DNA of 64,000 bases from Candidatus Bathyarchaeota archaeon (GCA_018396775.1 JAGTRF010000002.1:14069-78068); one strand, 5' to 3'. Shown: positions 20,110-54,268, counted from the stretch's first letter. Program-made: numbers and translations. The notes: generated by a model from the letters alone, not told the origin.

Positions 20110-20123
20110 AGGGAGGTCGGTTT

Positions 20124-20894: not shown

Positions 20895-20900
20895 AAAACT

Positions 20901-21179: not shown

Positions 21180-21184
21180 CTAAG

Positions 21185-22162
21185 GTGCAGGAAACTCTGA
21201 ATCTTCAAGATTTAAAACTAGAAGAAGAAATAAAGCTTGCTAGAGAAGCTTCCTGGAAAAATCTTGGAAGAAAAATAGTTTTCTTTACTCCAAGCTTCAT
21301 TTATTATAAAAAACATTTTTCTCCTTGGAGTTTTCCGTCAATTTCTATAACTGGAGAAAGCTGCGCTTTAAAATGCGATCATTGCGATGGAAAAATATTG
21401 AAAACTATGATTCCTGCTTTAACTCCCAAAAAATTAATAGATGTTTGCATGGAGATTGAAAAACATAAAGGTTTAGGATGCTTAATAAGCGGTGGCTGCT
21501 TAATAAATGGGGTTGTTCCATTAAAAAATTTTTCAAAAGCCATTAAAGAAGTTAAATCAAAAACTAAATTAAAAATTGTTGTGCATACAGGGTTAATAGA
21601 TGAGGAAACAGCTTTCAGCCTTAAAGAAGCTGGTGTTGACGCAGCTTTAATAGATGTTATTGGAAGCGAGAAAACCTTAAAAGAAATATACCATTTAAAC
21701 ACTAATGTTGAAAGCTTTGATAAATCTTTAAGCATTATTAATAAAGCTGGTCTCCCGCTTATCCCTCATATTTTAGTCGGTCTTCAGCATGGAGAAATTG
21801 AAGGTGAATATAACGCGCTTAACATTATTTCCCGCTATAACCCATCTGCTTTAATAGTAATCGTTTTCTTTCCAATTAAAGGAACTAAAATGGAAAAAGA
21901 TGATCCTCCAGCTATTCCTAAAGTGATTAAATTTATAGCGTTTGCAAGAAAAGTTTTTTCAGGCACACCTATAGCGTTAGGTTGCGCTAGACCAACAGGC
22001 GCTTATAGAGTTAAATTAGATTCATTAGCTGTTAAAACCGGCGTAAACGGTATAGCTTTTCCAGCTGAAGAAGCTGTTGAATTAGCTAAATCTTTAAATT
22101 TAGAGATTTTATATTCTAATGTTTGCTGCTCTCAAATTTATGAAGAGTATTTAAAAACTTGA
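21185..22162 (+). CDS. Radical SAM protein, second candidate lipoyl synthase component (LipS1/LipS2 family).
   Basis: ESCALKCDHCDG motif. TIM-barrel-like rSAM. Same operon as lplA. Confidence 0.55.
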   Translation: MQETLNLQDLKLEEEIKLAREASWKNLGRKIVFFTPSFIYYKKHFSPWSFPSISITGESCALKCDHCDGKILKTMIPALTPKKLIDVCMEIEKHKGLGCLISGGCLINGVVPLKNFSKAIKEVKSKTKLKIVVHTGLIDEETAFSLKEAGVDAALIDVIGSEKTLKEIYHLNTNVESFDKSLSIINKAGLPLIPHILVGLQHGEIEGEYNALNIISRYNPSALIVIVFFPIKGTKMEKDDPPAIPKVIKFIAFARKVFSGTPIALGCARPTGAYRVKLDSLAVKTGVNGIAFPAEEAVELAKSLNLEILYSNVCCSQIYEEYLKT

Positions 22163-25302: not shown

Positions 25303-26955
25303 TTGAGTGCAGAGAAAACTTTATTTTTAAGACGTGCAACAGGGCTTGTTAGAGCTTGGGCTTTAAGCGACGCATTCATGTACGCTGCACTTTCCGTTAA
25401 TATCGTGACGTTAGGAATGTACGCTTTCTCATTTGGCAGTTTTCTTCCGCAGCATAATTTAGTACCCGCTATTCTTATAAGCTTTCTTATAATATTCTTA
25501 GAGATTATTGCGTATTGTGGATTAATTTCTGTTATGCCTAGAGCTGGTGGAGACTACGTTTGGCAATCAAGAGTTTTGCATCCTTTAATCGGTTTTGTTT
25601 TCGCTTGGAATTGTTGGGTTTCAGTTCTTTGGCTTTGGGGACCAATTTATGGGCAGATGCTTGTTTGGGAGTTTATAAGCCCACTGCTAGTTCTTTTTGG
25701 AAAAATTTCAGGTAATCCAGCGCTTTATTCAGCAGCTTTATGGTGGACCGGCTCCATGGGAGCTTTTATTGCCACATTAATTACTATAGGCTTCGTTTTT
25801 ATTTATGTAGGGTTAGGGATGAGAAATTACGCTAGAATACAAAAAACATGTTTTATCTTAGGAACTATAGGTGTTTTAGCTTTCATAGCTATTATAGCGG
25901 CAACTCCTCAAGCAGCTTTTATTAATGCATTCAGTAAGCATTGGTCTGAATTTACTGGTCAAGCAATCAGCTATAACGATGTGATAGAGCGAACAACTCA
26001 AATTGGTGATTGGAGTTTAGATTTTAGAGATTATCCTTTTTCAGCTACTATAGCTTCCTTAAGCCTACCGTTAATTCCATTTGTTGTATTCTTTAATCTT
26101 TATCCTCAGTGGGGTGCTACTCTTTACGGTGAAGTTAGAGGGGCAAGCGATTTTAAGAGGCAAGCAGGCGCTATGGCTATAGGAAGCATTTTCATGAATA
26201 TTTTAGCTGTTATAATGCTTTTAGCCTTATGGAAATTTATTGGTTACGAGTTCTTTAATGCTTCAAATTATCTCTTTTGGTATTACATCTATACAGGGGC
26301 CGATTCTACTGTGCCATTGTTTCCATATCCTCCTCTATTAGCCACTTTCATTCTTGAAAATCCTGCTTTAGGCGCGCTGCTAGTTTTCTTAATAGGCTTA
26401 TGGTTTTTCGGTTGGTCTGGAACTTTATTCCTATCCTCTACACGAGTAGTTTTCGCTATGGCTTTTGATAGAGTTCTCCCAGAATGGTTTGGAAAAGTTA
26501 CAACAAAATTTAGAACTCCAATAAATTGCTTAGCATTTATGGCTATAATGACCACTTTCATAGGATGGCTTTACTGCTTTAACATCGGAGGCTTTACCAG
26601 GCTTACTCTTGACGCTGTATTTATGATTGCTGTAGGCTATGCTGTAACATGTATTGCGGCAGCGATAGTTCCCTGGCGTATGCCTGATGCCTATAATCGG
26701 GCTCCAATATCAAAATATAAAATTGGAGGAATCCCTGTGATTACTATAGCTGGAGTACTGTTCGCATTATTCCTAATTTGGGTTATGTATCTTTGGGCTA
26801 TAGACCCTGTTTATGGCGTTAATGATCCAGTATCAGTAATATATTTAATAGCTAACTATATAGCGGCTGTGATAATCTTTTACGCGTTTAAATGGTATAG
26901 AAAGAAGCAAGGAATTGAAGTGGATATGCTTTATAAAGAGATTCCAACCGAATAA
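25303..26955 (+). CDS. APC-superfamily permease (12 TM). Paralog of 47380..49008.
   Basis: Polytopic. TTG start after AAGGAGG. Similar in length and N-terminus to the second copy. Confidence 0.7.
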   Translation: MSAEKTLFLRRATGLVRAWALSDAFMYAALSVNIVTLGMYAFSFGSFLPQHNLVPAILISFLIIFLEIIAYCGLISVMPRAGGDYVWQSRVLHPLIGFVFAWNCWVSVLWLWGPIYGQMLVWEFISPLLVLFGKISGNPALYSAALWWTGSMGAFIATLITIGFVFIYVGLGMRNYARIQKTCFILGTIGVLAFIAIIAATPQAAFINAFSKHWSEFTGQAISYNDVIERTTQIGDWSLDFRDYPFSATIASLSLPLIPFVVFFNLYPQWGATLYGEVRGASDFKRQAGAMAIGSIFMNILAVIMLLALWKFIGYEFFNASNYLFWYYIYTGADSTVPLFPYPPLLATFILENPALGALLVFLIGLWFFGWSGTLFLSSTRVVFAMAFDRVLPEWFGKVTTKFRTPINCLAFMAIMTTFIGWLYCFNIGGFTRLTLDAVFMIAVGYAVTCIAAAIVPWRMPDAYNRAPISKYKIGGIPVITIAGVLFALFLIWVMYLWAIDPVYGVNDPVSVIYLIANYIAAVIIFYAFKWYRKKQGIEVDMLYKEIPTE

Positions 26956-26977: not shown

Positions 26978-27739
26978 TTATATCTCTTCCACTTCTTTAT
27001 ACCATTTTGTTTTTGTTCCTATTTTCGCGCGCACTTTCCAACTCATACTTTTAGGTTTTTCCTCTATTTTATTTAAAATTTCATCTATTTTATTTTTTAC
27101 ATCAATAATCTTATCTTCTGTTAAAACTTGAGAATAAGAATCTGCAAGAGTTTTAATCTTCTTTAAATTAGTTGTAACTGTATAATAAAAACCCCAATCT
27201 TTAGCTAAAAGCTCAGCTATATAACCGCTGTTAACAACTTCTTTTTCATCATCATCTCCAATTTTATGATCGCTAAGAAGAACAACAACATCTTTAACAT
27301 CTTTCTCGTTTATTTCAACTATTTGAAGCTTCTCTAAAAGCAAGTCTGCTAAAGATATGGTTGGATAATCTACAAGAAGCCTTCCTCTAAAATCAATTTT
27401 ATGACACATATCTAATTCGTTAAAGAAAACATCCACATGAATTCCTATCTCAGGTTTCTCATAAATATGTCTAGCTTCAGCCATAATAGCCATAAATCTT
27501 TCTCTAGGTTTATAGCCTATATCCAAAAAAAACTTTTTAACTTTTTCTCTATCGCTTGTAGTCATAAGGTCTATATCTGTAAATTGACGGCTTAAAGCTT
27601 CATGAAGAGATTTAGCTTCATTAGAGCTGTGAACATAAATAGCTAAAGCCCCCATCAATCTTAATGGTAGTCCTTTAGATTCTCCTAAATCAACTATTTT
27701 AACAGCTTCATCTATAAGAATCTTTTTAGTTAAAGCCAA
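26978..27739 (-). CDS. Hypothetical protein (possible nucleotidyltransferase-like fold).
   Basis: GS...DxD-like spacing (FTDIDLM, GIHVDVFF). Weak. Confidence 0.3.
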   Translation of the reverse strand: MALTKKILIDEAVKIVDLGESKGLPLRLMGALAIYVHSSNEAKSLHEALSRQFTDIDLMTTSDREKVKKFFLDIGYKPRERFMAIMAEARHIYEKPEIGIHVDVFFNELDMCHKIDFRGRLLVDYPTISLADLLLEKLQIVEINEKDVKDVVVLLSDHKIGDDDEKEVVNSGYIAELLAKDWGFYYTVTTNLKKIKTLADSYSQVLTEDKIIDVKNKIDEILNKIEEKPKSMSWKVRAKIGTKTKWYKEVEEI

Positions 27740-27832: not shown

Positions 27833-28774
27833 ATGACCAGAATATTTTTCGCGACCGATGTTCACGGTTCAGAAAAATGCTGGAAAAAATTTGTTAACGC
27901 TGGAAAATTTTATAAAGCTAACATCTCAATTTTAGGCGGAGATTTAACTGGTAAAGCTGTAATTCCAATAGTGAGCGAAGGCAACAACATTTATAAAGTG
28001 AATTTTTTAGAGCAGGATTTTAATTTAAAATCTAGTGAAGAGCTTGCTGAAATGGAGTATAAAATAGTTAATTCAGGTTATTATCCATATATTGTTTCTC
28101 GTGAAGAGTTAAAAGAGTTAAGTGTTAATCCAGATAAAGTTAATAAAATTTTTGAGCAGTTAATGACTGAGCGGTTAGAGAATTGGTTAAGGTTTGCTGA
28201 TGAAAAATTAAAGGGTTCAGGGATTAAAGCGTATGTTTGCCCAGGAAACGATGATCCATTCATAATTAACGAGTTAATTAAGAAATCTGAAGTTATAGAA
28301 AATGCTGAGGGAAAAGTTGTTGAGGTAGATTCTTATCATGAAATGATAAGCTCTGGATGGACTAATGTAACTCCATGGAAAACTTTTAGGGAATGCAGTG
28401 AAGAAGAGCTTGAAAGAAAAATAGAAGAAATGACTCAAAAAGTTAATAATTTGAGAAACTGTATTTTTAATCTTCACGCTCCACCATATGGATCTGGGCT
28501 TGATGAAGCTCCCCAATTAGATGAAAGCCTTAAGCCTATTTATGGAGGGCAGGTTTTAATGCCTGTTGGAAGTAAAGCTGTTAAAGAAGCTATAGAAAAA
28601 TATCAACCGCTTCTCGGGCTTCACGGGCACATTCATGAAGGTAAGGGTTTTTCACGCATTGGAAGAACTTTATGCATTAACCCTGGCAGCTCTTATGAAG
28701 AAGGAACATTGTTAGGCGCTATAATTGATTTAGATAAAGGAAAAATAGTTAGACATATGCTTGCAACAGGTTGA
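27833..28774 (+). CDS. Calcineurin-like metallophosphoesterase. Paralog of 49148..50182.
   Basis: DVHGS, GGD, GNDD and GHIHE metal-ligand motifs. About 50% identical by eye to the second copy. Confidence 0.75.
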   Translation: MTRIFFATDVHGSEKCWKKFVNAGKFYKANISILGGDLTGKAVIPIVSEGNNIYKVNFLEQDFNLKSSEELAEMEYKIVNSGYYPYIVSREELKELSVNPDKVNKIFEQLMTERLENWLRFADEKLKGSGIKAYVCPGNDDPFIINELIKKSEVIENAEGKVVEVDSYHEMISSGWTNVTPWKTFRECSEEELERKIEEMTQKVNNLRNCIFNLHAPPYGSGLDEAPQLDESLKPIYGGQVLMPVGSKAVKEAIEKYQPLLGLHGHIHEGKGFSRIGRTLCINPGSSYEEGTLLGAIIDLDKGKIVRHMLATG

Positions 28775-30215
28775 AAGGAAGGAGAATTTTATGCTTAAAT
28801 TTTTATCTAATAATGAGGTTTTAGAAATTCATAACGCCTCCTTAAAAATGTTGAATAAGCTTGGCGTAATAATAAAACATGAAAAACTTCTTAAAATGCT
28901 TAAGGATGCTGGAGCTGACGTTGATGAAGAAAAGCAGTTAGCTAGACTTCCAATATACTTGATTGAAGAGTTTGTTAGTAAAGCTCCAAGCGGGTATATT
29001 ATGGGCGGTCGAAAAAGAGAATATGATTTATATGTTGGAGATGGTAAAAGTTATGTTAGGAGTCAAGGTGGCTGCGATCGTATCTTAGATTTAGAAACAG
29101 GTGTTATTAGAGAAGCTAATACAAACGATGTTATTAACGCTACAATCATTCAAGATGCTTTAGAAAACATTCATTGGTGCGCAAGCTTTCTTCATCCAAG
29201 TGATGAACCTCCAATGACAAGAGATCTTTATCAATTAATGCTAATGATGGAAAATACTGTAAAGCATATAGTAGCTCAACCATATACAACTGAATCTTTT
29301 AAGTATCAAGTTAAAATGGCTAAAGCTATCATTGGAGATGAGGAAGAATTCATGAAAAGACCTCTTATAAGCGTTTTTGTTGGGCCAACAAGCCCGCTGG
29401 AAATAGATAAACATAACTGCGAGCTTATAGAAATAGCTGCTAAAAATAGAATTCCAATAATGCCTGTTAGCGCTCCTATAGCTGGCGCTACTGGTCCAGT
29501 AACTTTAGCTGGGTTAGCAGCTTTAGCTCACGCTGAAATAATGATGATTGTTGTTTTAACTCAATTAATTAATCCAGGTGCTCCAATAGAGTATACACCT
29601 AGACCTAACACTATGGATATGCGAACTGCTCAATCACTTTGGGGAGCCATAGAATATGCGTTAACTTCAGCTATTGGGGTTCAATTAGCTAGGCTTATTA
29701 AGCTTCCAGTATGCGTTCAATGCTTAAGCACAGACTCTAAGCTTCCAGATGCTCAAGCTTGCATAGAGAAAACTATGCAAATAACTTTAGCAGCTTTAAT
29801 GAAGCCTGATACGATGACTGGTGCTGGAGGAATAGATTCTGTTAAAACTGCAAGCTTAGAGCAATTAGTAATCGATAATGAAATAATAGGTATAGCTAAA
29901 AGAATTGCTAAAGGGGTTGAAGTTAACGATGAAACAATTGCTTATCATGTTATCGAAAGAGTTAAGCATGGCGGCCATTTTCTAGCTGATAAACATACCA
30001 GCAAATATTATTTTGAGGAGCATTATATACCTAAGCTTTTTGATAGAAATGCTAGAGGAGCATGGGAAGCCGCTGGCGGAAAAGACTTAACAACTAAAGC
30101 AAAAGAAACTGCAAAGAAAATTCTTAAAGAATATGAGCAGAGACCATTAGATGAAGATGTTAAAAAAGACTTAAGAAAAATAATGGATGAAGCTAGAAAA
30201 AACTTGGTTAAATAA
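28761..30215 (+). CDS. MttB-superfamily corrinoid-dependent methyltransferase, non-pyrrolysine type (quaternary-amine methyltransferase-like).
   Basis: PLISVFVGPTSPLE, LEQLVIDNEII and AWEAAGGKDL match trimethylamine methyltransferase blocks. Uninterrupted ORF with Ser/Thr in the region where MttB carries pyrrolysine. Confidence 0.8.
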   Translation: MQQVERKENFMLKFLSNNEVLEIHNASLKMLNKLGVIIKHEKLLKMLKDAGADVDEEKQLARLPIYLIEEFVSKAPSGYIMGGRKREYDLYVGDGKSYVRSQGGCDRILDLETGVIREANTNDVINATIIQDALENIHWCASFLHPSDEPPMTRDLYQLMLMMENTVKHIVAQPYTTESFKYQVKMAKAIIGDEEEFMKRPLISVFVGPTSPLEIDKHNCELIEIAAKNRIPIMPVSAPIAGATGPVTLAGLAALAHAEIMMIVVLTQLINPGAPIEYTPRPNTMDMRTAQSLWGAIEYALTSAIGVQLARLIKLPVCVQCLSTDSKLPDAQACIEKTMQITLAALMKPDTMTGAGGIDSVKTASLEQLVIDNEIIGIAKRIAKGVEVNDETIAYHVIERVKHGGHFLADKHTSKYYFEEHYIPKLFDRNARGAWEAAGGKDLTTKAKETAKKILKEYEQRPLDEDVKKDLRKIMDEARKNLVK

Positions 30216-30220
30216 AATAT

Positions 30221-31141
30221 TTAAAATAAGTTTTTGCTTGTTACTTCTGGATATTTTTCTTTCAGCATTTCAAAATGCTTTAAACACTCGTTAAATTGGA
30301 ATCTCGCGTAGCTATTAAAATCGAAATCTAACTCTGAAACATGATATTGCATAACTGCCCATAAACCCCACCAAAGCCTAGATGGAAGCTTATATAAATC
30401 TACTCTACGCTTCTCTCTTGCTTTTCCATCGCCAAAATATAATTGCTTTATATGTTCCTCCTCATCACTTGTTAAATTATCAAGCTCTGCAATAAAATCA
30501 GCGATATCAAAGCATGGGTCATTCATCCCTGCATACTCCCAATCAATAATGTAAACTTTATCATTAACGAAAATGAAGTTTTCAGGTAAAAGATCATTAT
30601 GGCATGGAGCAAGCTTTATAGGCTCATCTTTACGCGCTTCAACCTCTATGTTTTTAACTGTTTTAACCATTTCATCTACTGGGTAATCGCTTAAAATAGC
30701 CTTGCCGTAAGGTTTAAGCAAACTATTATATCTTTCAACCTCTCTAAAGATATTAAATATATTGCAAAGTTGAACGTTAGAATTGTGAATTAACTTTATA
30801 GCGTTAACAGCTTTCCATCTAACTTTAGGATCTTTAAAATCTTCTTTTTTAGCTACCTTTCCAGAAATAAACTCAATAATCGATATTTGAGTATCTTCTT
30901 TATGCTCGTAAAGCTTTGGAGTTATTTCAGTCGCTTCTAAAGCTTTTAAATTTTTTATTTCAGCTTCCCTATCTATAAAAAGCTCTGTTTTTTTACCTGG
31001 AATTCTAACCTTATATTTTCTGCCTTCTTCATCCTCCACTAAATAAAGCTCGTTCGTTATTCCACCTTTAAGCTTAACAACCTTCACCGGTTTCTCAAGC
31101 CATTCACGCCTTAAGCTTTTAATAAACGTTTCATCAATCAA
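30221..31141 (-). CDS. Choline/ethanolamine-kinase-like phosphotransferase (APH/ChoK family).
   Basis: HNDLLPENFIF (catalytic loop) and IDWEYAGMNDPCFDIADF (ChoK signature). Confidence 0.7.
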   Translation of the reverse strand: MIDETFIKSLRREWLEKPVKVVKLKGGITNELYLVEDEEGRKYKVRIPGKKTELFIDREAEIKNLKALEATEITPKLYEHKEDTQISIIEFISGKVAKKEDFKDPKVRWKAVNAIKLIHNSNVQLCNIFNIFREVERYNSLLKPYGKAILSDYPVDEMVKTVKNIEVEARKDEPIKLAPCHNDLLPENFIFVNDKVYIIDWEYAGMNDPCFDIADFIAELDNLTSDEEEHIKQLYFGDGKAREKRRVDLYKLPSRLWWGLWAVMQYHVSELDFDFNSYARFQFNECLKHFEMLKEKYPEVTSKNLF

Positions 31142-31257: not shown

Positions 31258-31665
31258 TTAAGGTGGAGGATAAGGTGCATAAGCCACTCTTAAAACCCAG
31301 TATAATAAATCTTTTTCTGTAATTATCCCTTCAAGCTTTCCATTCTTCACTACTGGAAGACGTCTAATATTGTTTTTTCGCATAAGTTGAAGGGCTTCAA
31401 AGATTCCTGTATCTGGAGAAACAGTAATTAAAGGTTTACTCATAACATCTTCAGTCTTCTTATCTAATGTTTCCTTATTTGCAACAAGTTTTTTCGCAAT
31501 ATCTCTTTCCGTTAATATTCCTACTGGTTTACCGTTTTTAACGATTAAAACGCTTCCTATACCTTTTTCAGCCATTATTTGAAGGGCTTTTAACACTTTT
31601 TCTGAAGCATCAACTGTTATCACGTTTTTACTCATTATTTGAGATACGAAATCTTCACTAGCCAA
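31258..31665 (-). CDS. CBS domain pair protein.
   Basis: Two CBS repeats (GSVLIV...GILTERDI and RRLPVV...GIITEKDL). Confidence 0.75.
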   Translation of the reverse strand: MASEDFVSQIMSKNVITVDASEKVLKALQIMAEKGIGSVLIVKNGKPVGILTERDIAKKLVANKETLDKKTEDVMSKPLITVSPDTGIFEALQLMRKNNIRRLPVVKNGKLEGIITEKDLLYWVLRVAYAPYPPP

Positions 31666-37787: not shown

Positions 37788-38228
37788 TTACTTAGAAAAA
37801 TTAAACTCAATATTTTTCAAAATTGCATCCACCAATTCGTTAGCTCTCTTCGCTTTTTTTAAAGCTTTATAAGCTTTTTCTTCGTTATAAAGTTCCCAAG
37901 GTGTAATACCTTCTGTAGGTTTACCATAAGTAGCAATTCCATGTTCAGGTGCTAATTCATGAGCTAAGTACGCTAACTCTTCAATAAAGTTTTTTTGTTC
38001 TAGTGATAATTCATGCATAACTTCTATCAATTCACTTGATGGATCATGAGTCCAACTTGGTATTCTTTTTAAAGCAATTATAGCTTTAGCGGCACTTTCA
38101 ATAGATAATTGTGAGGCTTCAACACTTTCTTTATAGTCACCTGTATTTAAAAATTTTTCCGCTTTTTTCAAGTATTCTAAAGCTAATTTGCATCTATAAT
38201 TCACTTCTGAGGTTGGATCGATTTTCAA
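37788..38228 (-). CDS. HEPN domain protein (toxin of the HEPN/MNT pair).
   Basis: 146 aa, helical. Directly follows an MNT nucleotidyltransferase. The Rx4-6H motif was not clearly identified. Confidence 0.55.
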   Translation of the reverse strand: MKIDPTSEVNYRCKLALEYLKKAEKFLNTGDYKESVEASQLSIESAAKAIIALKRIPSWTHDPSSELIEVMHELSLEQKNFIEELAYLAHELAPEHGIATYGKPTEGITPWELYNEEKAYKALKKAKRANELVDAILKNIEFNFSK

Positions 38229-38231
38229 AAA

Positions 38232-45687: not shown

Positions 45688-46101
45688 ATGGAGTTATCTA
45701 AAATCGTTAGGTTAGATTCTAAAGGTAGAATATTGATTCCTTCAAGCATTAGAGCTGGATTAGGTTTATGTAAAGGTATGTATCTGATGATTTATGCAAA
45801 TTTAAATAATAAAGAAGCGCGATTGATTCCTTTCGCTGATTCTAAAGCTAAGCTTATAAACTTTAAAATGACGCTTTCAGATGCGCCTGGAGCTTTAGCT
45901 AAAGCCGCTTCAACTTTAGCTAATTATGGTGTAGATTTACTTTCAAGCGAATCAAGAACTATTCAAAGAGGGAAAATCGCTGAATGGAATGCTATAGGTG
46001 ATATATCTAAATGCAAGCTTAACCTTAAAGAGTTGAAAAAAGCTTTAGAAAAAGAAGCTTCAGCTAAAAATATTCAATTCAAAAAGTTATCTCTTGATTA
46101 A
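45688..46101 (+). CDS. AbrB/SpoVT-type DNA-binding domain fused to an ACT domain (putative small-molecule-responsive regulator).
   Basis: N-terminal IVRLDSKGRILIPSSIR (swapped-hairpin). C-terminal ACT-like region. Confidence 0.55.
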   Translation: MELSKIVRLDSKGRILIPSSIRAGLGLCKGMYLMIYANLNNKEARLIPFADSKAKLINFKMTLSDAPGALAKAASTLANYGVDLLSSESRTIQRGKIAEWNAIGDISKCKLNLKELKKALEKEASAKNIQFKKLSLD

Positions 46102-47152
46102 AATTTATTTTATTAACTGTTAACCAATCCATTAAATCTAAGTCATGAATTAAAAATTTTAGGTATTCACTTACATTTTTATCTCCAGCATAAAAATCGC
46201 TAATATCCCAGTGAATTAAGAAAAGGTTTACCGCTTTTATTAAAGCTGGTAAAGCTTTTATCTCCATTTCATTTAAAGCATTACTTTTCCCTTTCTCAAT
46301 AAAGGTTTTTTGATAAGCTTTAAAAAACTCTAAAGCTTTATTAACATCTATAGCATTTTCTCCTTTTTCACCCCAAACACCGCATGTATAATAAATGGCG
46401 TAAGCAACATCATAGGCTCTAGCATCCCATTTAACCCAATCGAAATCATACATAGCTGTTACTTTATTATCTTTAAACTTTAAGTTTCCAAGATGAAAAT
46501 CTCCAAAAACAACTATTTTAGGCAGGGTAGCGTAACCTATTGCCTTCAACTCTTTATAAATTTTAATGCTTTTCTCTTTTAGCTTATCTTTATTGCTTAA
46601 AAATAGTTTGCAAAAATCTGTTTCATCAGCTTTCTTAGAAAGATTTTCAAATTCTTTTCTTAAATTAAAAATTAATTTATCAAGTGGAAGCGTTTTCTTT
46701 TTTGATTTAGGTTTAAATCCTTTAACATGAATATGGTATTCAGCTAAAGTTTTAGCAGCATCTTTTAACTCTAAAATATTACAATATGGATAATACCATG
46801 TATACTTGTCTTCACCAATTGCAAATTCAAATAACGCGTAAAACACTATCTTTTTATAATTATTTCTTTTCTCAAATTTAGATACATAAGTTTTACCGGT
46901 TTTAGTTTTAAGTAAACGAGGAGTTTTTTGAAATCCTGAATTTATTAAATGGTTTATAAGCTCATGCTCGAAATTTACTTCGTTTCTTCGAGCGTTATCT
47001 CTATAACGCCTTAAAAAATATCTTCCTTTAGAAGTTTCAATAATATAGCTAACGTTAACATAGCCGCTGCTTAACTTTTCAGTTTTAATCACTTCACCTA
47101 AATCATAATTTTCTTTAATAATACTTTTTATATTGGTTAATTCATTTATCAA
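46079..47152 (-). CDS. APH/ChoK-family phosphotransferase. Second copy.
   Basis: FGDFHLGNL (catalytic loop) and DFDW..W motif. Confidence 0.65.
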   Translation of the reverse strand: MINELTNIKSIIKENYDLGEVIKTEKLSSGYVNVSYIIETSKGRYFLRRYRDNARRNEVNFEHELINHLINSGFQKTPRLLKTKTGKTYVSKFEKRNNYKKIVFYALFEFAIGEDKYTWYYPYCNILELKDAAKTLAEYHIHVKGFKPKSKKKTLPLDKLIFNLRKEFENLSKKADETDFCKLFLSNKDKLKEKSIKIYKELKAIGYATLPKIVVFGDFHLGNLKFKDNKVTAMYDFDWVKWDARAYDVAYAIYYTCGVWGEKGENAIDVNKALEFFKAYQKTFIEKGKSNALNEMEIKALPALIKAVNLFLIHWDISDFYAGDKNVSEYLKFLIHDLDLMDWLTVNKINFNQEITF

Positions 47153-47379
47153 AATAGAAGAGGCCTCTTAACTCGTTTTATTATTATTTAATTTTTAATT
47201 TAAAGCTGAAACAAAAAGTTTTTTGTAGAATAATTAAAGAATTCTAATACACTTCTTCTCTTTATATATAAAATATATAGATATATTACTTCAATATACG
47301 AAAATCTTAAATACTTAATGGGATAATAGCAAGGACTTATTTTGCGAGCTTTAATTAAATTAGGAGGAAAAATTAAAGC

Positions 47380-49008
47380 TTGGCTGAGAAAGGTGTTTTT
47401 ATAAGAAAAGCAAGCGGATTAGTAAGGGAAGTAGCTCCAATAGATGCTTGGATATACAACTGCCTTACAATGGGTTGGCTGTCTGTTATTGCCTATAATG
47501 TTGTAGTAAATGTTGCTATATTTCCTGGTGGAAACCATAGTGCAGCTATACTTATGACTGCTGTGCTTGGAACATTCATGTGGACAACCTATATATTTAT
47601 AACAACTGCTATGCCTAGAAGTGGAGTTGATTGGATTGCTCAAAGCAGGTTTATAAGCCCATGGGTAGCTGCACCAATAGTTATAGGAGACTTTTTCTAT
47701 TTAGTCTATTGGGATGTTTGGGCTTATTGGTTTGTTACATTTTTAGGTTTGCAACCATTTCTTACAGTTTTAGGCGCAGCTGCAAATAATCCTTCAATAA
47801 GCCAATTTGGTGAATGGCTTATAACATCTAAAGGCCTCTTTATAGTTGGAATGATATATCTGTTTCTAATGGGGTGGCAGCTTGCTCTGCCTATAAGGCT
47901 TTTCGCAAAAATTCAAAGAGGGTTAATGTTTTTTGCAACGCTTGCAATAATAGTTATGTATGCTGTTTTCGCGATGACGCCGAACTCGGTTTTTATTCAA
48001 CGCTTCAACTTGTTTGCTGAAGCTTTTGGTGCTGGACCAGATTATTACCATGCGGTTATACAAAAAGCTAGTGAAGTAACTAATTTAAATCCAGGCTTTA
48101 GATGGTATGATCAAATTGGCTTAATGGTTTTAATTTGGAGCCTTTTAGGATGGGCTTTTTGGAGTGCTCAACTTAGTGGAGAAATAAAAGGAGCTGATAA
48201 GCTTAAAGTTCAAAACTTTATAATGAATGGTTCAGGTTGGGCTACAGCTATAGCATGGCTTATAGCTTGGCTTTTAATATCTAGATCAGCCGGTGAAGAA
48301 TTTATGAAAGCTGCTGGATTTCTAGGTTTAAGCGGTGAATGGGAACTGCCTGTGGCACCTTATTTAGCTGGTTATCTTGCAGGTGCTACTATGGCCCCTG
48401 GATTTGGAACTTTAATAATCGTTGTGCTTTTAATACTTGCTTTAGGCTTGGTTTGTAATGGATATCAAGTTTACTATAATACTATGGTTGGCCCCATTAG
48501 AATGTTTTTCGCTATGGCTTTTGATAGAGCTCTTCCTGATGTATTTTCTAGAGTGCATAAAAGATGGCATACACCTGTATATGTTATTTGGTTGGCTTGC
48601 GCTGTAGCTGCTATTCAAATTTACGTTTCAGCTTATGCGCCTGAAGTTGCACCAGTATTCCTTCCAGCTGCGCTTTCAAGCGGATGCATACCATACTTCT
48701 TTACATCTTTAGCTGGAGCCTTAATGCCTTATACTGGAAAACCGATTTATGAAGCTTCTCCAGCAGCTAAATTTAAGCTTGGTCCAATACCGTTAATAAC
48801 AATTACTGGTGGGATTAGCTGCATCTTTAACGCTACAATGGCTTATTACTGGCTTACGGTTCCAGAGCTTGGAATAAACCCAGCTTCTATGGTTTTCGTA
48901 TTAATAGCATATATTGTAGGCTTTGTTTATTATGTTTTCTGGAGAACATATAGAAAAAGGCAGGGTATAAATCTAGATTTAGCATTTAAAGTTATTCCAC
49001 CAGATTAA
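47380..49008 (+). CDS. APC-superfamily permease. Paralog of 25303..26955.
   Basis: TTG start after TAGGAGG. Polytopic membrane protein. Confidence 0.7.
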   Translation: MAEKGVFIRKASGLVREVAPIDAWIYNCLTMGWLSVIAYNVVVNVAIFPGGNHSAAILMTAVLGTFMWTTYIFITTAMPRSGVDWIAQSRFISPWVAAPIVIGDFFYLVYWDVWAYWFVTFLGLQPFLTVLGAAANNPSISQFGEWLITSKGLFIVGMIYLFLMGWQLALPIRLFAKIQRGLMFFATLAIIVMYAVFAMTPNSVFIQRFNLFAEAFGAGPDYYHAVIQKASEVTNLNPGFRWYDQIGLMVLIWSLLGWAFWSAQLSGEIKGADKLKVQNFIMNGSGWATAIAWLIAWLLISRSAGEEFMKAAGFLGLSGEWELPVAPYLAGYLAGATMAPGFGTLIIVVLLILALGLVCNGYQVYYNTMVGPIRMFFAMAFDRALPDVFSRVHKRWHTPVYVIWLACAVAAIQIYVSAYAPEVAPVFLPAALSSGCIPYFFTSLAGALMPYTGKPIYEASPAAKFKLGPIPLITITGGISCIFNATMAYYWLTVPELGINPASMVFVLIAYIVGFVYYVFWRTYRKRQGINLDLAFKVIPPD

Positions 49009-49147: not shown

Positions 49148-50182
49148 TTATCCAGATACAAATTGATAATTTACTACCTTTTTATCAGCTATAGTTATTA
49201 ACGCAGCCCTTAATATTCCTTCCCCATACTCGCTTCCAGGATTAACACATAATGTTCTTCCAATTTTCCTGGTGCCTTTAGATTCATGTATATGGCCATG
49301 TAAACCAAGCAGTGGTTGATATTTTTCTATAGCTTCTTTAACAGCTTCGCTTCCAGCACCATAAAAAACCATTTGGGCTCCCTCAAAAACTGGTTTTGGT
49401 GGATAAACTGTTGTATCAAGTTTTGGAGCTGTATCAAGCTCCGAGTCTTTGGGTGGAATATGAAAATTGAATATAGCATTTTCCATATCCTTAATTTTAG
49501 AAATCATTTCTTCTATTTTTCTTTTAAGCTCCTCTTCGTCGCATTCTCTTGGGGTATTCCAAGGAGTTGGGTTTCCCCAACCTAAGCTTGCCATTTCATG
49601 AACATCATCAATACGCACTACTTTTCCATCAGGATTTTTAACATGCTCAGTATCTTTAATAAGTTCAACAACTTCTTGTTCATCATCATTTCCTCCAGTT
49701 ATATAGCAGATAATATTTGTTCCCTTTAGCCGTTCTTCTGCGATTTCCATCCAGTTTTTCAAGCGTTCCCGCATTAATTCATCAAATATTTTTTTGCGTT
49801 TTTCTTCATTAGCTTCAAGTTCTTCATACTCTTTTTGAGTTACATGCAAGGGGTAAAAACCTGTTGTTAAAATTCTTTTTTCTAAATAGGGTAATTCATC
49901 TTTATTTTTAGCTTTTTGTTCTTGTCCTAAGAAATATGACTTATATATGCCATCAGCCTGCTCAATTATTGGAACAACCATTTTCCCTGTTATATCTCCA
50001 CCTAAAATAAGCGCGTCAACTTCATAGATTTTCCCAGCGTTAATAAATTTTTTAAATGTAGGTTCAGATCCGTGCACATCTGTAGCAAAAAGAATTTTAG
50101 TTATTTTTTCTTCACTTTTCTTTTTACCGAAAAAAGGCAAGCATAAACGCCTCCAAAATTTAAACGTGAATAATTTATACAC
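49148..50182 (-). CDS. Calcineurin-like metallophosphoesterase. Second copy.
   Basis: Same DVHGS, GGD, GND and GHIHE motifs as 27833..28774. The true start is probably downstream of the track start. Confidence 0.7.
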   Translation of the reverse strand: MYKLFTFKFWRRLCLPFFGKKKSEEKITKILFATDVHGSEPTFKKFINAGKIYEVDALILGGDITGKMVVPIIEQADGIYKSYFLGQEQKAKNKDELPYLEKRILTTGFYPLHVTQKEYEELEANEEKRKKIFDELMRERLKNWMEIAEERLKGTNIICYITGGNDDEQEVVELIKDTEHVKNPDGKVVRIDDVHEMASLGWGNPTPWNTPRECDEEELKRKIEEMISKIKDMENAIFNFHIPPKDSELDTAPKLDTTVYPPKPVFEGAQMVFYGAGSEAVKEAIEKYQPLLGLHGHIHESKGTRKIGRTLCVNPGSEYGEGILRAALITIADKKVVNYQFVSG

Positions 50183-50256: not shown

Positions 50257-50772
50257 ATGCTGGAAACTTTAAAAATTCATGGAATAGAGCTTAAACATCC
50301 TGAAGAATGGGTAATTCACCCAATAATTAAATTGGAAAGACTTAGAGGAGAAATTGCTTTTTCCTCTAGCGAACAAAAAAGCGCAACGCCTAAGCTTATG
50401 CTTTCATGGAAACCTTTAGAGCAATCTAAAAGAAAATATAATTCACCTGAAGATCAAGCTGAAGCAACTATAAAAATAATGCGGAAAGACAGCTCATTAA
50501 AATCTCTTGAAATAATTAATCATGAAGAAATTAATGTTAACAACCATAAAGCAAGCTTTTATAATATTAAAATAACCCTTTATAAACCAGCTTTAATAAT
50601 GATTAAACCAAAATTCACAATTAAAATCGTAAAATTTGCAATGCTTTTCTGCGAAGAATCTGACCGCTCAATAACACTTTACTCTGAGCTAGAAGAAACA
50701 GAAGAAAAAGAAGATGTATTTAAAGAAATTCTTTCATCACTAATATGCCATTCAACCAAGCGTAAAATTTAA
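50257..50772 (+). CDS. Hypothetical protein.
   Basis: 171-aa ORF directly upstream of the methyltransferase genes. Confidence 0.35.
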   Translation: MLETLKIHGIELKHPEEWVIHPIIKLERLRGEIAFSSSEQKSATPKLMLSWKPLEQSKRKYNSPEDQAEATIKIMRKDSSLKSLEIINHEEINVNNHKASFYNIKITLYKPALIMIKPKFTIKIVKFAMLFCEESDRSITLYSELEETEEKEDVFKEILSSLICHSTKRKI

Positions 50773-50818
50773 ATTCTTATTACAGCTTGATTATTCAGCG
50801 TTAAAATTAAATTGAAGA

Positions 50819-52204
50819 ATGAGGAATGAAAATTTGCCTCCTATAAGTTTTATTGAAGTTTTAAATCGAAGCTTGACAGGTCCAGTTTCATCAGAAAAAG
50901 AGTTTGATTATAAAGTTGGCATGAAATTAAGAGAGCTTGTAAAAAAATATGATATTAAATATAATCCAGAAAACCCAATCCCATCTGACAATAGTTTAGC
51001 TGATGATGTATTTAAAGCAGCTGTAGAATTTTATACTGATGTAGGCACTTATTGCATGGATACCGAGCGAAGAATAACATTTACAGAGGATGAAATTAAA
51101 GAAGGAATAAAAAATGTGCCACATGCAACCCTTTTTGGGGAAGGAAATGAAGCAAAATTTTTCTCTGCTAGAACGCTTGAAAGCTCTGAGCATCCATGGT
51201 GTCATGTAGGTGCTGGAATAGCCGTATCCAGTGAAGAACTATTAGTAAAACTTGTTGAAGCTTTTGCAAGCATTCCTGAAACTGATTCCGTAAGCGTTCC
51301 TACATTAACTGAGGTTGATGGCGTTCCTATAAGAACACCGCCATTAGAAGTTTATGGATCAATAAGAATGATTGCTTTAGCTCATGAAGCTATGAAAAGA
51401 GCCGGTCGCCCAGGTTTACCGATTTTAAATTTAGTTTCTACAGCAGCTTCTCAAATAGCTGGAATAGCTGCAACAGCTCCTCAATTTGGGATAAAACCAA
51501 CAGATGGATGGCTTGTAGATGCTTTCCCAGATTTAAAAATGTATAACGATGTTTTAACTAAAGCAGCTTACCTGTTAAACTGGGGCGCAAATATAGGTGC
51601 ATGTTATACACCATTAATAGGTGGATACTCTGGAGGACCTGAAGGAACAGCTATAATGAGTGTTGCTTACTCGATAAACGGGATAATGGTGTTAAAATCA
51701 AGATATCAACTTTACTATGTTTCAAATATAGTAAACGGTTCATCAAGCAGTAGAGACGCTCTTTGGGCTTTATCAGTTAGCGCGCAAGCAATAAGCAGAA
51801 ACATTAAAGTACCTATAATTCATTTATCTTATCAAGCTGCTGGAGCTGCTACAGAAATGCTATTATATGAAATTACAGCAGCTATATTAGCGTCGGTGGC
51901 TTCCGGCATCTCAGTAGAAAGCAACCATCCATCTAAAGCTGTGTTAACCGATCATATAATCCCTATGGAATCTGAATTTTATTGTAAAGTTGCGCATGCT
52001 GTTACTGGCATGAAAAGAAGTGAAGTAAATGAACTTGCAAAAATCCTATTACTTAAATATGAGAAGGATTTAAATAATCCGCCTAAAGGAAAAAAATATC
52101 AAGAATGTTATGATGTTAAAACAGGTAAACCAAAGGAAGAGTATTTAAAATTCTATAAAGTTATGGAGAAAAAAATTATTGATTTAGGAATACAAATTGA
52201 ATAA
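50819..52204 (+). CDS. MtmB-family (monomethylamine methyltransferase-like) corrinoid-dependent methyltransferase, non-pyrrolysine.
   Basis: C-terminal PKGKKYQECYDVKTGKPKEEYLKFY resembles the MtmB C-terminus. AGRPGLPILNLVSTAASQIAG aligns where MtmB encodes Pyl. The ORF is uninterrupted. This rests on my recall of MtmB sequence. Confidence 0.65.
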   Translation: MRNENLPPISFIEVLNRSLTGPVSSEKEFDYKVGMKLRELVKKYDIKYNPENPIPSDNSLADDVFKAAVEFYTDVGTYCMDTERRITFTEDEIKEGIKNVPHATLFGEGNEAKFFSARTLESSEHPWCHVGAGIAVSSEELLVKLVEAFASIPETDSVSVPTLTEVDGVPIRTPPLEVYGSIRMIALAHEAMKRAGRPGLPILNLVSTAASQIAGIAATAPQFGIKPTDGWLVDAFPDLKMYNDVLTKAAYLLNWGANIGACYTPLIGGYSGGPEGTAIMSVAYSINGIMVLKSRYQLYYVSNIVNGSSSSRDALWALSVSAQAISRNIKVPIIHLSYQAAGAATEMLLYEITAAILASVASGISVESNHPSKAVLTDHIIPMESEFYCKVAHAVTGMKRSEVNELAKILLLKYEKDLNNPPKGKKYQECYDVKTGKPKEEYLKFYKVMEKKIIDLGIQIE

Positions 52205-52239: not shown

Positions 52240-52884
52240 TTGTCTTCTAAAGAAGAGATTTTAAATAAGGTTGTTTTGGATTTGTTTAGTTATGATGTTG
52301 ATGGTATTAGGGTTGATGTTGAAAAGGCTTTAGAAAAAGGTTTTTCGCCTTTAGAGGTTATTAACGCCTTATCTAATGGTATGCGTGAGATTGGTGATAA
52401 GTTTGCTAGGCTTGAGCTTTTCTTAACTGATTTAATGATGGCTGGTGACACGATGAAGGCTGCTTTAGAAATATTACTGCCTAAAATTCCTAAAGATAAA
52501 GCTGTAAGTAAAGGCAAAATTGTTATTGGAACTGTTAAAGGGGATATTCATGAAATAGGCAAGAATATTGTTTCAGCCATGTTGACAGCTTCAGGTTTTG
52601 AAGTTTACGATTTAGGGAAGGATGTTCCAGCTTCAAGGTTTCTTGAGGAAGCTGAGAAATTTAAAGCTAATATTATAGGCGCTTCAGCATTAATGACAAC
52701 AACAATACCCGCCTTAAAAGATTTAATAGAATATGTTAAGGCTAAAGGCTTAAGAAATAAATATAAAATAATAGTTGGTGGAGGACCAGTAACAAAAGAA
52801 TATGCGGAGGAAATAGGTGCAGACGCATATGCGGAAAACGCTGTAGAAGCCGTTAAAACAATAAAAAACCTAATAGAAAAATAG
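52240..52884 (+). CDS. Corrinoid (cobalamin-binding) protein, MtmC/MttC-like.
   Basis: Helical cap plus Rossmann B12 domain with GDIHEIGKNIV (DxHxxG). TTG start after GGAGGG. Confidence 0.8.
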   Translation: MSSKEEILNKVVLDLFSYDVDGIRVDVEKALEKGFSPLEVINALSNGMREIGDKFARLELFLTDLMMAGDTMKAALEILLPKIPKDKAVSKGKIVIGTVKGDIHEIGKNIVSAMLTASGFEVYDLGKDVPASRFLEEAEKFKANIIGASALMTTTIPALKDLIEYVKAKGLRNKYKIIVGGGPVTKEYAEEIGADAYAENAVEAVKTIKNLIEK

Positions 52885-52897: not shown

Positions 52898-54268
52898 ATG
52901 AACTCTGTTAACTTCTTTGAAGTTTTAAAACGCGCTTCATCAGGTCCCATAGTTTCTGAAAAAGAATTTAATATACTGGTTTTTAAAAAGCTTAAAGAAG
53001 TTGTGAAAGAGTACGATATAAAATTTGATGGTGAAACCCCAGTTCCTTTTGATGATAGTTTAGCTGATGATGTATTTAAAGCTGCTTTAGATTTTTATGC
53101 TGATGTAGGCACTTATTGCATGGATACTGAGCGTATAATAAAATTTACAGAGGATGAAATTAAAGAAGGCTTAAAAAATGCTCCTCATAAAGCTTTTTTT
53201 GGAGAAGGAAAAGAAGCGAAAACTTTTATACCTAGAAAACCTGAAAGCAAAGAAACTCCATGGTGTCATGTAGGTGCTGGAATAGCTGTATCTAGTGAAG
53301 AAATTCATTCAAAGTTAGTTGAAGGATACGCTAGCATTCCTGAAGCAGATTCTATAAGCGTTCCAGCATTAGCTTTTATAGAAGGTGTTTCAATAAGGGA
53401 GCCTCCAATAGAATTTTATGGTGCTTTGAAAATGTTAGCTTCAGCTAAAGAAGCTTTAAGAAGAGCCGGTCGTCCAGGCTTACCGATTTTAAATCTTGTT
53501 TCTACAGCGGCCTCTCAAATAGCTGGAATAGCTGCTAGTGCAGCGCAATTTGGCTTAACATCTTCTAACGGATGGTTAGTTCCCACTTATCCAGAATTAA
53601 AAATTGGAAATAATGAGTTATGTAAAATAGCTTATCTGCTTAGTTGGGGAGCAAATATTGGTGCTGAATACTCGCCGTTAATAGGTGGCTACTCTGGTGG
53701 ACCTGAAGGAACAGCAGTAGTGTTTGTTGCTAATTGCATTCAAGGAATACTAGTTTTAAAGTCTACTTATCAACTTGCTTGGATAACAAATGTTATTGAT
53801 AGATGCTCAACTACTAAAGATGCCATATGGGCTTTAGCTGTAAGCGGTCAAGCAATAAGCCGAAATATATCTTTTCCAGTTATTCAATTTCATTATCAAG
53901 CAGCCGGTCCAGCAACTAAAATGCTGCTTTATGAGGTTGCTGCAGGCATGATTGAGATAGTGGCTTCAGGTCAAGCTATAGAAACAGCGCATCCAGCTAG
54001 AGCTGTAGAAATAGATTATGTAACGCCGTTAGAAATGAAATTTTCTGTAGAAATAGCTCATGCAGCAGCAGGAATGAAAAGAACAATGGCAAACGAAATA
54101 GTTAAAGAACTACTAGAAAAATATGAAAATAACATTAAAAATGCTCCTAAGGGAAAAAAATATCAAGAATGCTTTGATTTAAAAACAGGTAAACCTACCG
54201 AAGAATACTTAAGAATATATAATGAAGTGAAAAAAGAGCTTAAAGATATAGGTATCCCATTTGAATAA
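52898..54268 (+). CDS. MtmB-family methyltransferase, second paralog, non-pyrrolysine.
   Basis: Collinear with 50819..52204 (GRPGLPILNLVSTAASQIAG and PKGKKYQECFDLKTGKPTEEYLRIY). About 55-60% identical by eye. Confidence 0.65.
   Translation: MNSVNFFEVLKRASSGPIVSEKEFNILVFKKLKEVVKEYDIKFDGETPVPFDDSLADDVFKAALDFYADVGTYCMDTERIIKFTEDEIKEGLKNAPHKAFFGEGKEAKTFIPRKPESKETPWCHVGAGIAVSSEEIHSKLVEGYASIPEADSISVPALAFIEGVSIREPPIEFYGALKMLASAKEALRRAGRPGLPILNLVSTAASQIAGIAASAAQFGLTSSNGWLVPTYPELKIGNNELCKIAYLLSWGANIGAEYSPLIGGYSGGPEGTAVVFVANCIQGILVLKSTYQLAWITNVIDRCSTTKDAIWALAVSGQAISRNISFPVIQFHYQAAGPATKMLLYEVAAGMIEIVASGQAIETAHPARAVEIDYVTPLEMKFSVEIAHAAAGMKRTMANEIVKELLEKYENNIKNAPKGKKYQECFDLKTGKPTEEYLRIYNEVKKELKDIGIPFE

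Follow-up and report, generated by a model that had tools for sequence, protein, structure and literature searches.

A choline-kinase-family kinase and a pyrrolysine-free MttB homolog in a conserved bathyarchaeial locus with a possible role in choline-type methylotrophy

The window analyzed here, a 64,000-nucleotide (nt) stretch of DNA from Candidatus Bathyarchaeota archaeon (GCA_018396775.1 JAGTRF010000002.1:14069-78068), encodes a methyltransferase of the MttB superfamily that lacks pyrrolysine (Pyl) and, beside it, a kinase of the choline kinase family. The host is considered to be an uncultured archaeon of sediment or hot spring within the Bathyarchaeia. The gene neighborhoods of homologs show that the pairing of these two genes is not a matter of chance. 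We propose that the locus forms half of a methylotrophy system of Bathyarchaeia, by which methyl groups would be drawn from a choline-type N-methylated amino alcohol via a phosphorylated intermediate, and we assign this reading a probability of roughly 0.5. The two genes, and two codons that bear on the function of the methyltransferase, are located as follows.

28791..30215, plus strand: non-pyrrolysine MttB-superfamily methyltransferase, 474 amino acids (aa) (Pfam MTTB, TIGR02369, PDB search)
29712-29714, plus strand: codon of Cys318, at the position of MtgB Arg312 (gap-free alignment)
29727..29729, plus strand: codon of Ser323, at the position of Pyl334 of Methanosarcina barkeri MttB (gap-free alignment)
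30221..31141, minus strand: choline-kinase-family kinase, 306 aa, convergent with the MttB gene (Pfam Choline_kinase, 121.1 bits)

A preceding reading of the sequence alone, made without database searches (the sequence-only reading), had described an open reading frame (ORF) of 484 aa at 28761-30215 that belongs to the MttB family and has Ser/Thr at the Pyl position. A real, full-length gene is present, but TTG at 28761, the mechanical start of the ORF, is unlikely to be its start codon. The likely start is ATG at 28791, which is preceded by AAGGAAGGAG and lies 16 nt beyond the stop codon of the upstream metallophosphoesterase gene; 474 aa is also the length given by NCBI and by all homologs. 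The protein belongs to the superfamily according to Pfam MTTB (PF06253; 317.6 bits versus a cut-off of 25, with residues 10 to 477 covered) and aligned end to end with M. barkeri MttB (7xcl; residues 12 to 480 versus 18 to 490, 245.8 bits), which is its best-scoring solved relative, 33% identical and co-linear over the full length. The score with TIGR02369, the equivalog model for Pyl-containing MttB, was 454.8 bits, under the cut-off of 525.

M. barkeri MttB is pyrrolysine dependent. There is no gap opposite Pyl334 of 7xcl, where the window protein has Ser323 followed by Thr324 (KLPVCVQCL-S-TDSKLP), and KLPVCVQCLSTDSK aligned without gaps to GLPSYVAGSOSDAK of MttB and to GVPSRSGGGLNDSK of the Desulfitobacterium hafniense methyltransferase MtgB. 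This alignment bears out the earlier assignment of the Pyl position. No in-frame stop codon or TAG was found within the ORF, and the protein therefore has no pyrrolysine. Gly110 and Tyr364 activate pyrrolysine in MttB (PMC9842639). The window protein keeps only Gly110 of the two (G103); it shares the Gly110-type loop with M. barkeri MttB, and both are without the one-residue insertion of MtgB-like members. Tyr364 is replaced by Thr353, Met249 by Ala238, and Thr111 by Gly.

The sequence-only reading had also assigned the Ser/Thr form to the quaternary-amine branch of the superfamily, and that assignment does not hold. In MtgB (2qne/9yce), glycine betaine is bound by Y97 and F356 through cation-pi interactions and by R312 and H348 at the carboxylate, and R312 is stated to be conserved in MtcB, MtpB, MthB, and MtyB (PMC13080624). 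The corresponding columns in the window protein are G103, C318, G354 (or a gap, depending on the alignment), and V361, with none of the four residues kept. The MtgB-312 column holds Cys in the window protein and in its 89 to 92% identical relatives and Asp in P0003 to P0023 (labels of the form P#### for homologs and L### for loci denote sets recovered by the homolog and locus searches). The Arg that is common to the characterized non-Pyl branch (MtgB, MtcB, MtpB, MtyB, and MthB), whose substrates are acidic, is thus absent. MtgB resembles the window protein in its superfamily, its TIM barrel, and its lack of pyrrolysine, and it carries out the corrinoid-dependent transfer from a quaternary amine that is proposed for the window, but it is only 28% identical and scored 173 bits in the PDB search versus 246 bits for 7xcl.

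In a neighbor-joining tree of the 120 best database matches, the window protein and P0001 to P0005 form a clade inside the Asp-bearing group. M. barkeri MttB is near the base of the larger group, the Arg-bearing clade is apart, and MtgB is a distant outgroup. To judge from the tree and the binding residues, the window protein lies outside any glycine betaine clade, the placement that the sequence-only reading had named as evidence that would speak against its proposal. It appears unlike the characterized quaternary-amine members and, by score, nearer to Pyl-type MttB. Three lysines are specific to the clade. K314, K348, and K362 occupy loops that form the wall of the pocket in MttB and MtgB, and sister clades carry Gly, Gly, and Leu/Asn, respectively, instead. 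These lysines are possible anion binders. The ratio of nonsynonymous to synonymous substitution rates (dN/dS) of the MttB gene was 0.088 versus an 89%-identical ortholog.

The choline/ethanolamine kinase signature that the sequence-only reading had attributed to the neighboring gene was confirmed. Both CHNDLLPENFIF and IIDWEYAGMNDPCFDIADF were read directly from the kinase sequence. HNDLLPEN, within the motif HNDLLPENFIF, fits the Brenner motif HxDxxxxN, and IIDWEY fits the choline kinase motif [IV]DWEY. Pfam Choline_kinase (PF01633) scored 121.1 bits (cut-off, 29) versus 62 bits for APH. The best PDB matches were 3dxq, of the choline/ethanolamine kinase family (E 2.8e-30), and LicA of Streptococcus pneumoniae (4r77; E 4.8e-28), and the best aminoglycoside phosphotransferase (APH) match was at E 1.9e-4. 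All NCBIfam matches were below threshold (GntI, 174 bits; thiamine kinase, 91; APH(3'), 22.2; homoserine kinase, 16.7). A grouping with aminoglycoside or homoserine kinases, which would have told against the sequence-only reading, was not found, because the kinase is closer to choline kinases in these searches and retains the contacts that LicA makes with choline.

These contacts were taken as described in PMC4364537. The kinase is 32.7% identical to LicA over 257 residues in a HMMER alignment, and it has the same short prokaryotic architecture. LicA pocket residues T29, D176, V178, Y197, E213, W251, W254, and Y268 correspond to T29, D183, L185, Y203, E219, W258, W261, and Y278 of the window kinase, and further matches are N181 with N188, D194 with D200, and E196 with E202. 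The catalytic and choline-binding residues are shared, and the substitution of L for V178 is the sole change in the pocket, which is mostly conserved across the archaeal kinase clade. However, LicA feeds phosphocholine to cell wall decoration via LicC and LicD, whereas the neighbors of the window kinase are catabolic methyltransferases, a phosphoesterase, and a permease. The window kinase is 100% identical to an NCBI 'phosphotransferase' of 'Candidatus Bathyarchaeota archaeon' (contig JAWCKM010000004.1, GCA_038852005.1).

The association of the kinase with methyltransferase genes is conserved well beyond close relatives. Relatives with 89 to 92% identity in MttB have the same six genes in the same order. 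In the loci of P0003 (55% identical; L006 to L008) and P0004 (53%; L005 and L096), genes for a permease, a metallophosphoesterase, MttB, the choline-kinase-like kinase, and a non-Pyl homolog of the monomethylamine methyltransferase MtmB are found on one strand. In L005 and L096, a 365-aa Pfam AAT protein (PF03417; acyl-coenzyme A:6-aminopenicillanic acid acyltransferase/peptidase C45-like) replaces the metallophosphoesterase (MPE1) immediately upstream of MttB, and MPE1 is located on the opposite strand further upstream. Kinase and MttB genes adjoin, as reported for MthB-type systems, in the window (with 5 nt between the two stop codons), L001 to L010, L015, and L096, and they are on the same strand in L005 to L008. 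Loci L014 and L181 to L183 have no MttB gene, and their kinases, 52 to 56% identical to that of the window, are flanked by genes for a corrinoid protein, non-Pyl MtmB, MtrH, a permease, and metallophosphoesterases.

A kinase-centered scan of metagenome contigs recovered 47 loci of at least 6 kb with kinases 31 to 42% identical to that of the window. Phosphoesterase genes were found in 17 of these, permease genes in 15, MttB or MtmB genes in 11, and a nucleotidyltransferase-like (NTase-like) gene in 9. In the kinase tree, the members of the window clade are all located beside MttB/MtmB module genes. None in a large sister clade is module associated, and this sister clade includes a proteobacterial type adjoining genes for tripartite ATP-independent periplasmic (TRAP) transporters. 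Two more clades adjoin either MtmB and corrinoid genes or permease, phosphoesterase, and NTase genes with MtgB-like MttBs. The reverse count, of 74 loci of at least 6 kb with MttB homologs 32 to 43% identical to that of the window, yielded one choline-kinase-like and three APH2-like kinases (APH2 being a second kinase type found in the window), and only some lineages therefore show the link. At least four different MttB lineages, as well as MtmB, take part in it. Furthermore, kinases that adjoin MtmB genes are nearer to the window kinase than those that adjoin the MttB genes of L005 and L006, and the kinases therefore do not divide according to methyltransferase type. No methyltransferase gene adjoins that of P0142, a bacterial kinase homolog (38% identical), and the link is therefore clade specific rather than family wide.

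Thus, the pair described in the sequence-only reading is real but is part of a larger module, to which a metallophosphoesterase, a permease of the amino acid-polyamine-organocation (APC) superfamily, an NTase-like protein, and non-Pyl MtmB genes also belong. The remaining genes around MttB (module A) are the following.

25303..26955, plus strand: APC-superfamily permease, 550 aa, about 11 hydrophobic segments (Pfam AA_permease_2, 61.7 bits)
26978..27739, minus strand: nucleotidyltransferase-like protein NTase253, 253 aa (Pfam NTP_transf_5, 24.6 bits, below cut-off)
27833..28774, plus strand: metallophosphoesterase MPE1, 313 aa, in an operon with the MttB gene (weak Pfam Metallophos matches)
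31258..31665, minus strand: CBS-pair protein, upstream of the kinase gene (Pfam CBS, 133.8 bits)

The permease is presumed to be the importer of module A, and its gene adjoins those of MPE1 and of MttB or the kinase in L001 to L008, L015, L096, L102 to L156, L175, and L176. The AlphaFold2 model of MPE1 has a calcineurin-like fold (predicted local distance difference test [pLDDT], 95.4). The closest PDB structures in a fold search were the uncharacterized proteins aq_1956 and TT1561, and the glycerophosphodiesterase GpdQ was matched at E 3e-4; with only uncharacterized or generic metallophosphoesterases recovered, the fold search gave no clue to specificity. MPE1 homologs are 55 to 60% identical across Chloroflexi, Firmicutes, and Bathyarchaeia, which suggests that MPE1 was spread by interdomain transfer. 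NTase253 had no match in the PDB profile search or the NCBIfam scan, and its AlphaFold2 model from a single sequence was unusable (pLDDT, 36). Residues of the nucleotidyltransferase type (G30, D55xD57, and D103) are invariant in 11 homologs. The gene recurs with those of the permease, MPE1, and the kinase in bacterial and archaeal loci, and it travels with the permease and MPE1 genes in Bathyarchaeia, Chloroflexi (Leptolinea tardivitalis), and Firmicutes. The CBS-pair protein, a possible regulator, is encoded beside the kinase in close relatives and again in the Anaerolineales locus L080. All six genes of module A are under purifying selection (dN/dS, 0.06 to 0.19 versus L001).

Further along the window, a second set of genes (module B, 46079-54268) repeats the logic of module A, with a permease, a kinase, a phosphoesterase, and methyltransferases.

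46079..47152, minus strand: second kinase, APH2, 357 aa, APH/homoserine-kinase-II-like (Pfam APH, 78.6 bits)
47380..49008, plus strand: second permease, 542 aa, a distant paralog of the APC permease (BLASTP to 25303-26955)
49148..50182, minus strand: metallophosphoesterase MPE2, an MPE1 paralog (Pfam Metallophos_3, 29.4 bits)
50257..50772, plus strand: 171-aa protein that travels with MtmB and MPE2 (faint Pfam match)
50819..52204, plus strand: non-pyrrolysine MtmB homolog 1, 461 aa (Pfam MtmB, 297.5 bits, full length, no stop codon)
52240..52884, plus strand: corrinoid protein, the only one in the window (B12-binding_2 and B12-binding domains)
52898..54268, plus strand: non-pyrrolysine MtmB homolog 2, 456 aa (Pfam MtmB, 320.4 bits)

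Unlike the kinase at 30221-31141, APH2 does match the aminoglycoside/homoserine kinase type (NCBIfam CotS, 66 bits; thrB_alt, 63 bits), and its homologs adjoin MttB and corrinoid genes in the Chloroflexi loci L033, L034, and L040. The 542-aa permease has eight hydrophobic segments and no Pfam match; it is 25.7% identical to the APC permease over 565 aa (BLASTP, E 6e-51). MPE2 is 53% identical to MPE1 over 318 aa. Homologs of the 542-aa membrane protein and of MPE2 adjoin MttB and corrinoid genes in the Chloroflexi locus L034, and a 90% identical copy of the 171-aa protein is encoded between MtmB and MPE2 in L014. The corrinoid gene lies between those of the two MtmB homologs, which share 62% identity and have Leu opposite Pyl202 of M. 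barkeri MtmB (1l2q); neither had an NCBIfam match. The sequence-only reading had pointed to a corrinoid protein at 52240, and this is confirmed by its domains and by a TIGR02370 score of 217.2 (cut-off, 215.3); the best named model was MtbC (219 bits). Directly downstream of the MtmB and corrinoid genes, at 54762-57267, are a Fae-Hps fusion (formaldehyde-activating plus orotidine monophosphate decarboxylase-family domain) and a transporter of the major facilitator superfamily.

The neighborhoods of two relatives suggest choline head groups as the substrate context. The sister MttB P0005 (52% identical) shares the clade-specific residues. In its locus (L177; ENA ERZ23498930 scaffold_1609), the MttB gene is bordered by genes for a Ugp-like ABC transporter and a glycerophosphodiester phosphodiesterase (GDPD) at one end and by those for a corrinoid protein, MtrH, and an FGGY kinase at the other, a glycerophosphodiester context. 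An AP_endonuc_2 protein and a Fer4_16 protein are also encoded in L177. In Peptococcaceae bacterium CEB3 (L176, LDXJ01000039.1), the trio of NTase253, permease, and MPE1 lies ahead of the gene for an MttB with 50% identity to MtgB, in which the MtgB binding residues are intact. GbsR and an iron-dependent alcohol dehydrogenase (Fe-ADH) are encoded on one side of the trio, and this MtgB-like MttB, an aldehyde dehydrogenase, and OpuA are encoded on the other. The cluster looks like a complete anaerobic route from choline through glycine betaine to methyl. It further contains another MttB, a corrinoid activase-like protein, DUF1638, a pterin methyltransferase, and an aldehyde ferredoxin oxidoreductase.

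There are characterized precedents for corrinoid-dependent demethylation of choline-type compounds. MthB of Eubacterium limosum methylates its corrinoid protein with phosphocholine, not choline (Jiang et al., JBC 2025, PMC12155760). The divergently encoded MthK is both a choline kinase and a dimethylaminoethanol (DMAE)-phosphate:choline phosphotransferase, the route runs from choline through phosphocholine to DMAE phosphate, and the mthK-mthB pairing recurs in Firmicutes and deltaproteobacteria (PMC12155760). MtqB, a non-Pyl MtmB homolog, acts on tetramethylammonium and choline (Kashyap et al. 2026, PMC13044021). The statement in the sequence-only reading that a choline-type substrate had yet to be assigned in this branch therefore no longer holds. 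Among the papers searched, none was found that links Bathyarchaeia, a choline kinase, and these methyltransferases.

The locus of the window appears to be an archaeal relative of this recently described kinase-coupled MttB pathway, with a different MttB lineage and extra conserved partners. The MthB/MthK/MthC/MthA system, like the window, has a Pyl-free MttB-superfamily gene beside a kinase with Brenner and choline kinase motifs, includes a transporter and a corrinoid protein, has the kinase gene on the opposite strand, and keeps the pairing in many genomes. MthB (WP_341455952.1) and MthK (WP_052237066.1) were compared with the window proteins through published statements on R312 and kinase size. 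The window is archaeal, whereas Mth colocalization is reported solely for Firmicutes and deltaproteobacteria, and MthB keeps the Arg that is Cys or Asp in the window clade. The window kinase (306 aa) shares 33% identity with LicA, and MthK, with a mass of about 48 kDa as estimated from kcat/Vmax, shares 19%. In place of EamA, the window has an APC permease as its transporter, and the methyl acceptor is probably tetrahydromethanopterin (H4MPT) via MtrH rather than tetrahydrofolate. The window also has a conserved metallophosphoesterase, in contrast to E. limosum, in which MthK recycles phosphate, and it adds the non-Pyl MtmB homologs and the NTase-like protein.

The MtqB/MtqC system of Methanococcoides methylutens Q3c was compared by its description. 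It includes a non-Pyl MtmB, and MtqC is annotated as MtbC type, the type that the corrinoid protein of the window resembles by score. However, the window and its relatives pair a kinase with full-length non-Pyl MtmB homologs, whereas reports of the Mtq system, which feeds coenzyme M in a methanogen, mention neither a kinase nor a phosphoesterase. Several loci of Firmicutes and Desulfovibrionaceae (L043, L044, L054, L060, and L076) were considered as MthB/MthK-type candidates and were rejected because no ORF with a Brenner motif was found near the MttB gene. The bathyarchaeial lignin O-demethylase called 'MtgB' (Yu et al. 2023) was also considered as a rival, but it is an unrelated protein of about 300 aa.

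In the proposed pathway, the APC permease would import choline or a choline phosphoester such as glycerophosphocholine or phosphocholine, and the LicA-like kinase would phosphorylate the hydroxyl of the imported compound. The Pyl-free MttB homolog and the two Pyl-free MtmB homologs 20 kb away would then pass N-methyl groups to the Co(I) corrinoid protein at 52240, and an MtrH-type enzyme encoded elsewhere in the genome would move the methyl on to H4MPT. The metallophosphoesterase would either free the head group from a diester precursor or dephosphorylate the demethylated product. We favor this reading because the linkage is kept at 53 to 55% MttB identity, the logic is duplicated in module B, the kinase has a LicA pocket, related loci have choline contexts, MthB and MtqB are precedents, and the dN/dS values are low. 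A phosphoester is proposed as the donor because of the MthB precedent, the strict linkage to the kinase, and the three clade-specific lysines in the pocket loops. The choline-type substrate suggested in the sequence-only reading thus gains from the kinase pocket, the conserved linkage, and the choline contexts of relatives, but its assignment stays inferred from sequence, and we consider it plausible. The phosphorylated form as methyl donor, the order of the steps, and the roles of the phosphoesterase and NTase-like protein are also what we infer from these comparisons.

Several observations weigh against this pathway. The Arg that binds the acid group in MtgB, and that MthB keeps, is Cys in the window and Asp in its nearest relatives; Asp in this column argues against phosphate there and would be more in keeping with a free hydroxyl or a cation. 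If the kinase and the phosphoesterase shared one compound as substrate, the result would be a futile cycle, unless the two differ in specificity. The kinase gene is convergent with the MttB gene in the window, and the two are therefore not co-transcribed; the corrinoid protein is encoded 22 kb away. The trio of NTase253, permease, and MPE1 is also found without any methyltransferase, for example in Leptolinea tardivitalis. L177 has GDPD and no choline kinase, and free choline could therefore be the methyl donor for the clade.

GDPD normally yields free choline plus glycerol-3-phosphate. It is possible, though on balance unlikely, that the same module uses free choline, or another unphosphorylated quaternary amine, as the methyl donor and that the kinase and phosphoesterase act before or after transfer. 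For example, choline could be supplied through cleavage of glycerophosphocholine or phosphocholine by the phosphoesterase, and the demethylated product, ethanolamine or DMAE, could be a substrate of the kinase on its way to assimilation or as a control on export. In addition to the gene content of L177, the Asp or Cys in place of the acid-binding Arg, the use of free choline by MtqB, and the CEB3 cluster, in which the MPE1 trio feeds a kinase-less oxidation of choline to glycine betaine, would fit such a scheme. However, the kinase keeps the quaternary-amine cage of LicA (Y203, E219, W258, W261, and Y278), into which choline fits better than ethanolamine, the sole characterized kinase-linked MttB member requires a phosphorylated substrate, and the clade-specific lysines in the pocket loops would suit an anion. 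A broader form of the phosphorylation pathway, which we regard as doubtful, is a widespread head-group pathway common to Bathyarchaeia and Chloroflexi, in which import and phosphorylation of choline or glycerophosphocholine would be followed by removal of all three N-methyl groups and, finally, by release of phosphate by the metallophosphoesterase. One MttB-type and two MtmB-type enzymes may share one corrinoid protein in such a pathway.

The likeness to choline kinases could instead reflect a generic cation-binding pocket, with a substrate that is another cationic alcohol or amine not derived from choline. Candidates are another N-methylated amino alcohol, an N-methylated amino sugar, or a thiamine- or guanidine-type compound. 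The NCBIfam matches of the kinase to GntI and then to thiamine kinase, both below their cut-offs, and the JGI label 'thiamine kinase-like' on its homologs point in this direction, as do MttB pocket residues unlike those of every characterized member and the resemblance of APH2 and NTase253 to enzymes that modify small molecules. Nevertheless, the eight LicA choline-contact positions are kept (V178 as L), the GDPD/Ugp and GbsR/Fe-ADH/OpuA contexts are choline-specific themes, and the MttB and MtmB families both have members that use choline-type substrates. We consider a substrate unrelated to choline distinctly improbable. Far less probable again is that these are ordinary, unlinked genes, a trimethylamine or glycine betaine methyltransferase with an unrelated kinase as its neighbor. 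JGI and NCBI do name the MttB homologs 'trimethylamine--corrinoid protein Co-methyltransferase', surveys of Bathyarchaeia count mttB and mtmB as methylamine genes (PMC10321748), and the pair is convergent in the window. However, the absence of pyrrolysine (Ser at 334), the Thr in place of Tyr364, and the TIGR02369 score below cut-off do not fit a trimethylamine enzyme, and the lack of all four glycine betaine binding residues does not fit a glycine betaine enzyme. Same-strand synteny at 53 to 55% identity and the clade-wide association in the kinase tree likewise speak against unlinked genes.

The rest of the window (G+C, about 32%) contains housekeeping genes of a typical archaeal kind, including those for ATP-dependent DNA ligase, Alba, Elp3, GatD/GatE, the thermosome, and the histidine operon. 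Neither MtrH nor a corrinoid activase is encoded within the 64 kb. Rfam and tRNA scans of the window found nothing, and a scan for sigma-70 promoters and terminators found fewer sites than in shuffled sequence and is not applicable to archaea. A HEPN plus minimal-nucleotidyltransferase pair (toxin-antitoxin-like; 37788-38681) is located at one end of the histidine operon beside hisIE, and a PIN-domain gene is found at 57312-57698. At 43673-45552, the gene after that of a short-form HisG (218 aa) encodes a HisRS-like protein of 407 aa, which probably represents the regulatory subunit HisZ and not a tRNA synthetase. The 319-aa protein at 60457-61416 consists of the class II aminoacyl-tRNA synthetase catalytic core alone (tRNA-synt_2) and resembles archaeal AsnA-type asparagine synthetase paralogs. 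The first third of the window holds five dispersed radical-SAM genes (5244-9843 and 19090-22162), of which one encodes a SPASM domain, and a 917-aa protein with a double AAA plus Lon_C is encoded at 10225-12978.

In uncultured archaea and anaerobic bacteria, few groups of unassigned methyltransferases have as many members as the Pyl-free MttB and MtmB homologs. A methylamine reading of the bathyarchaeial non-Pyl genes cannot be correct, because these genes have no pyrrolysine. For one archaeal clade, the locus offers a specific hypothesis on the substrate that can be put to the test. It links the non-Pyl enzymes of the MttB and MtmB types within one pathway and singles out three more conserved partners, the metallophosphoesterase, the APC permease, and the nucleotidyltransferase-like protein. 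The principle of activation by a kinase, described in 2025 for a gut acetogen, would extend to abundant archaea of sediments and hot springs. If the proposed pathway is correct, then the choline head groups of decaying membranes would be a source of methyl groups and carbon for nonmethanogenic archaea, and a known methane precursor would be diverted away from methanogens. If the widespread head-group pathway also holds, then many bathyarchaeial 'trimethylamine/monomethylamine methyltransferases' would be phospholipid-head-group demethylases, and phosphorylation would be a general means of activating neutral amino alcohols for corrinoid methyl transfer.

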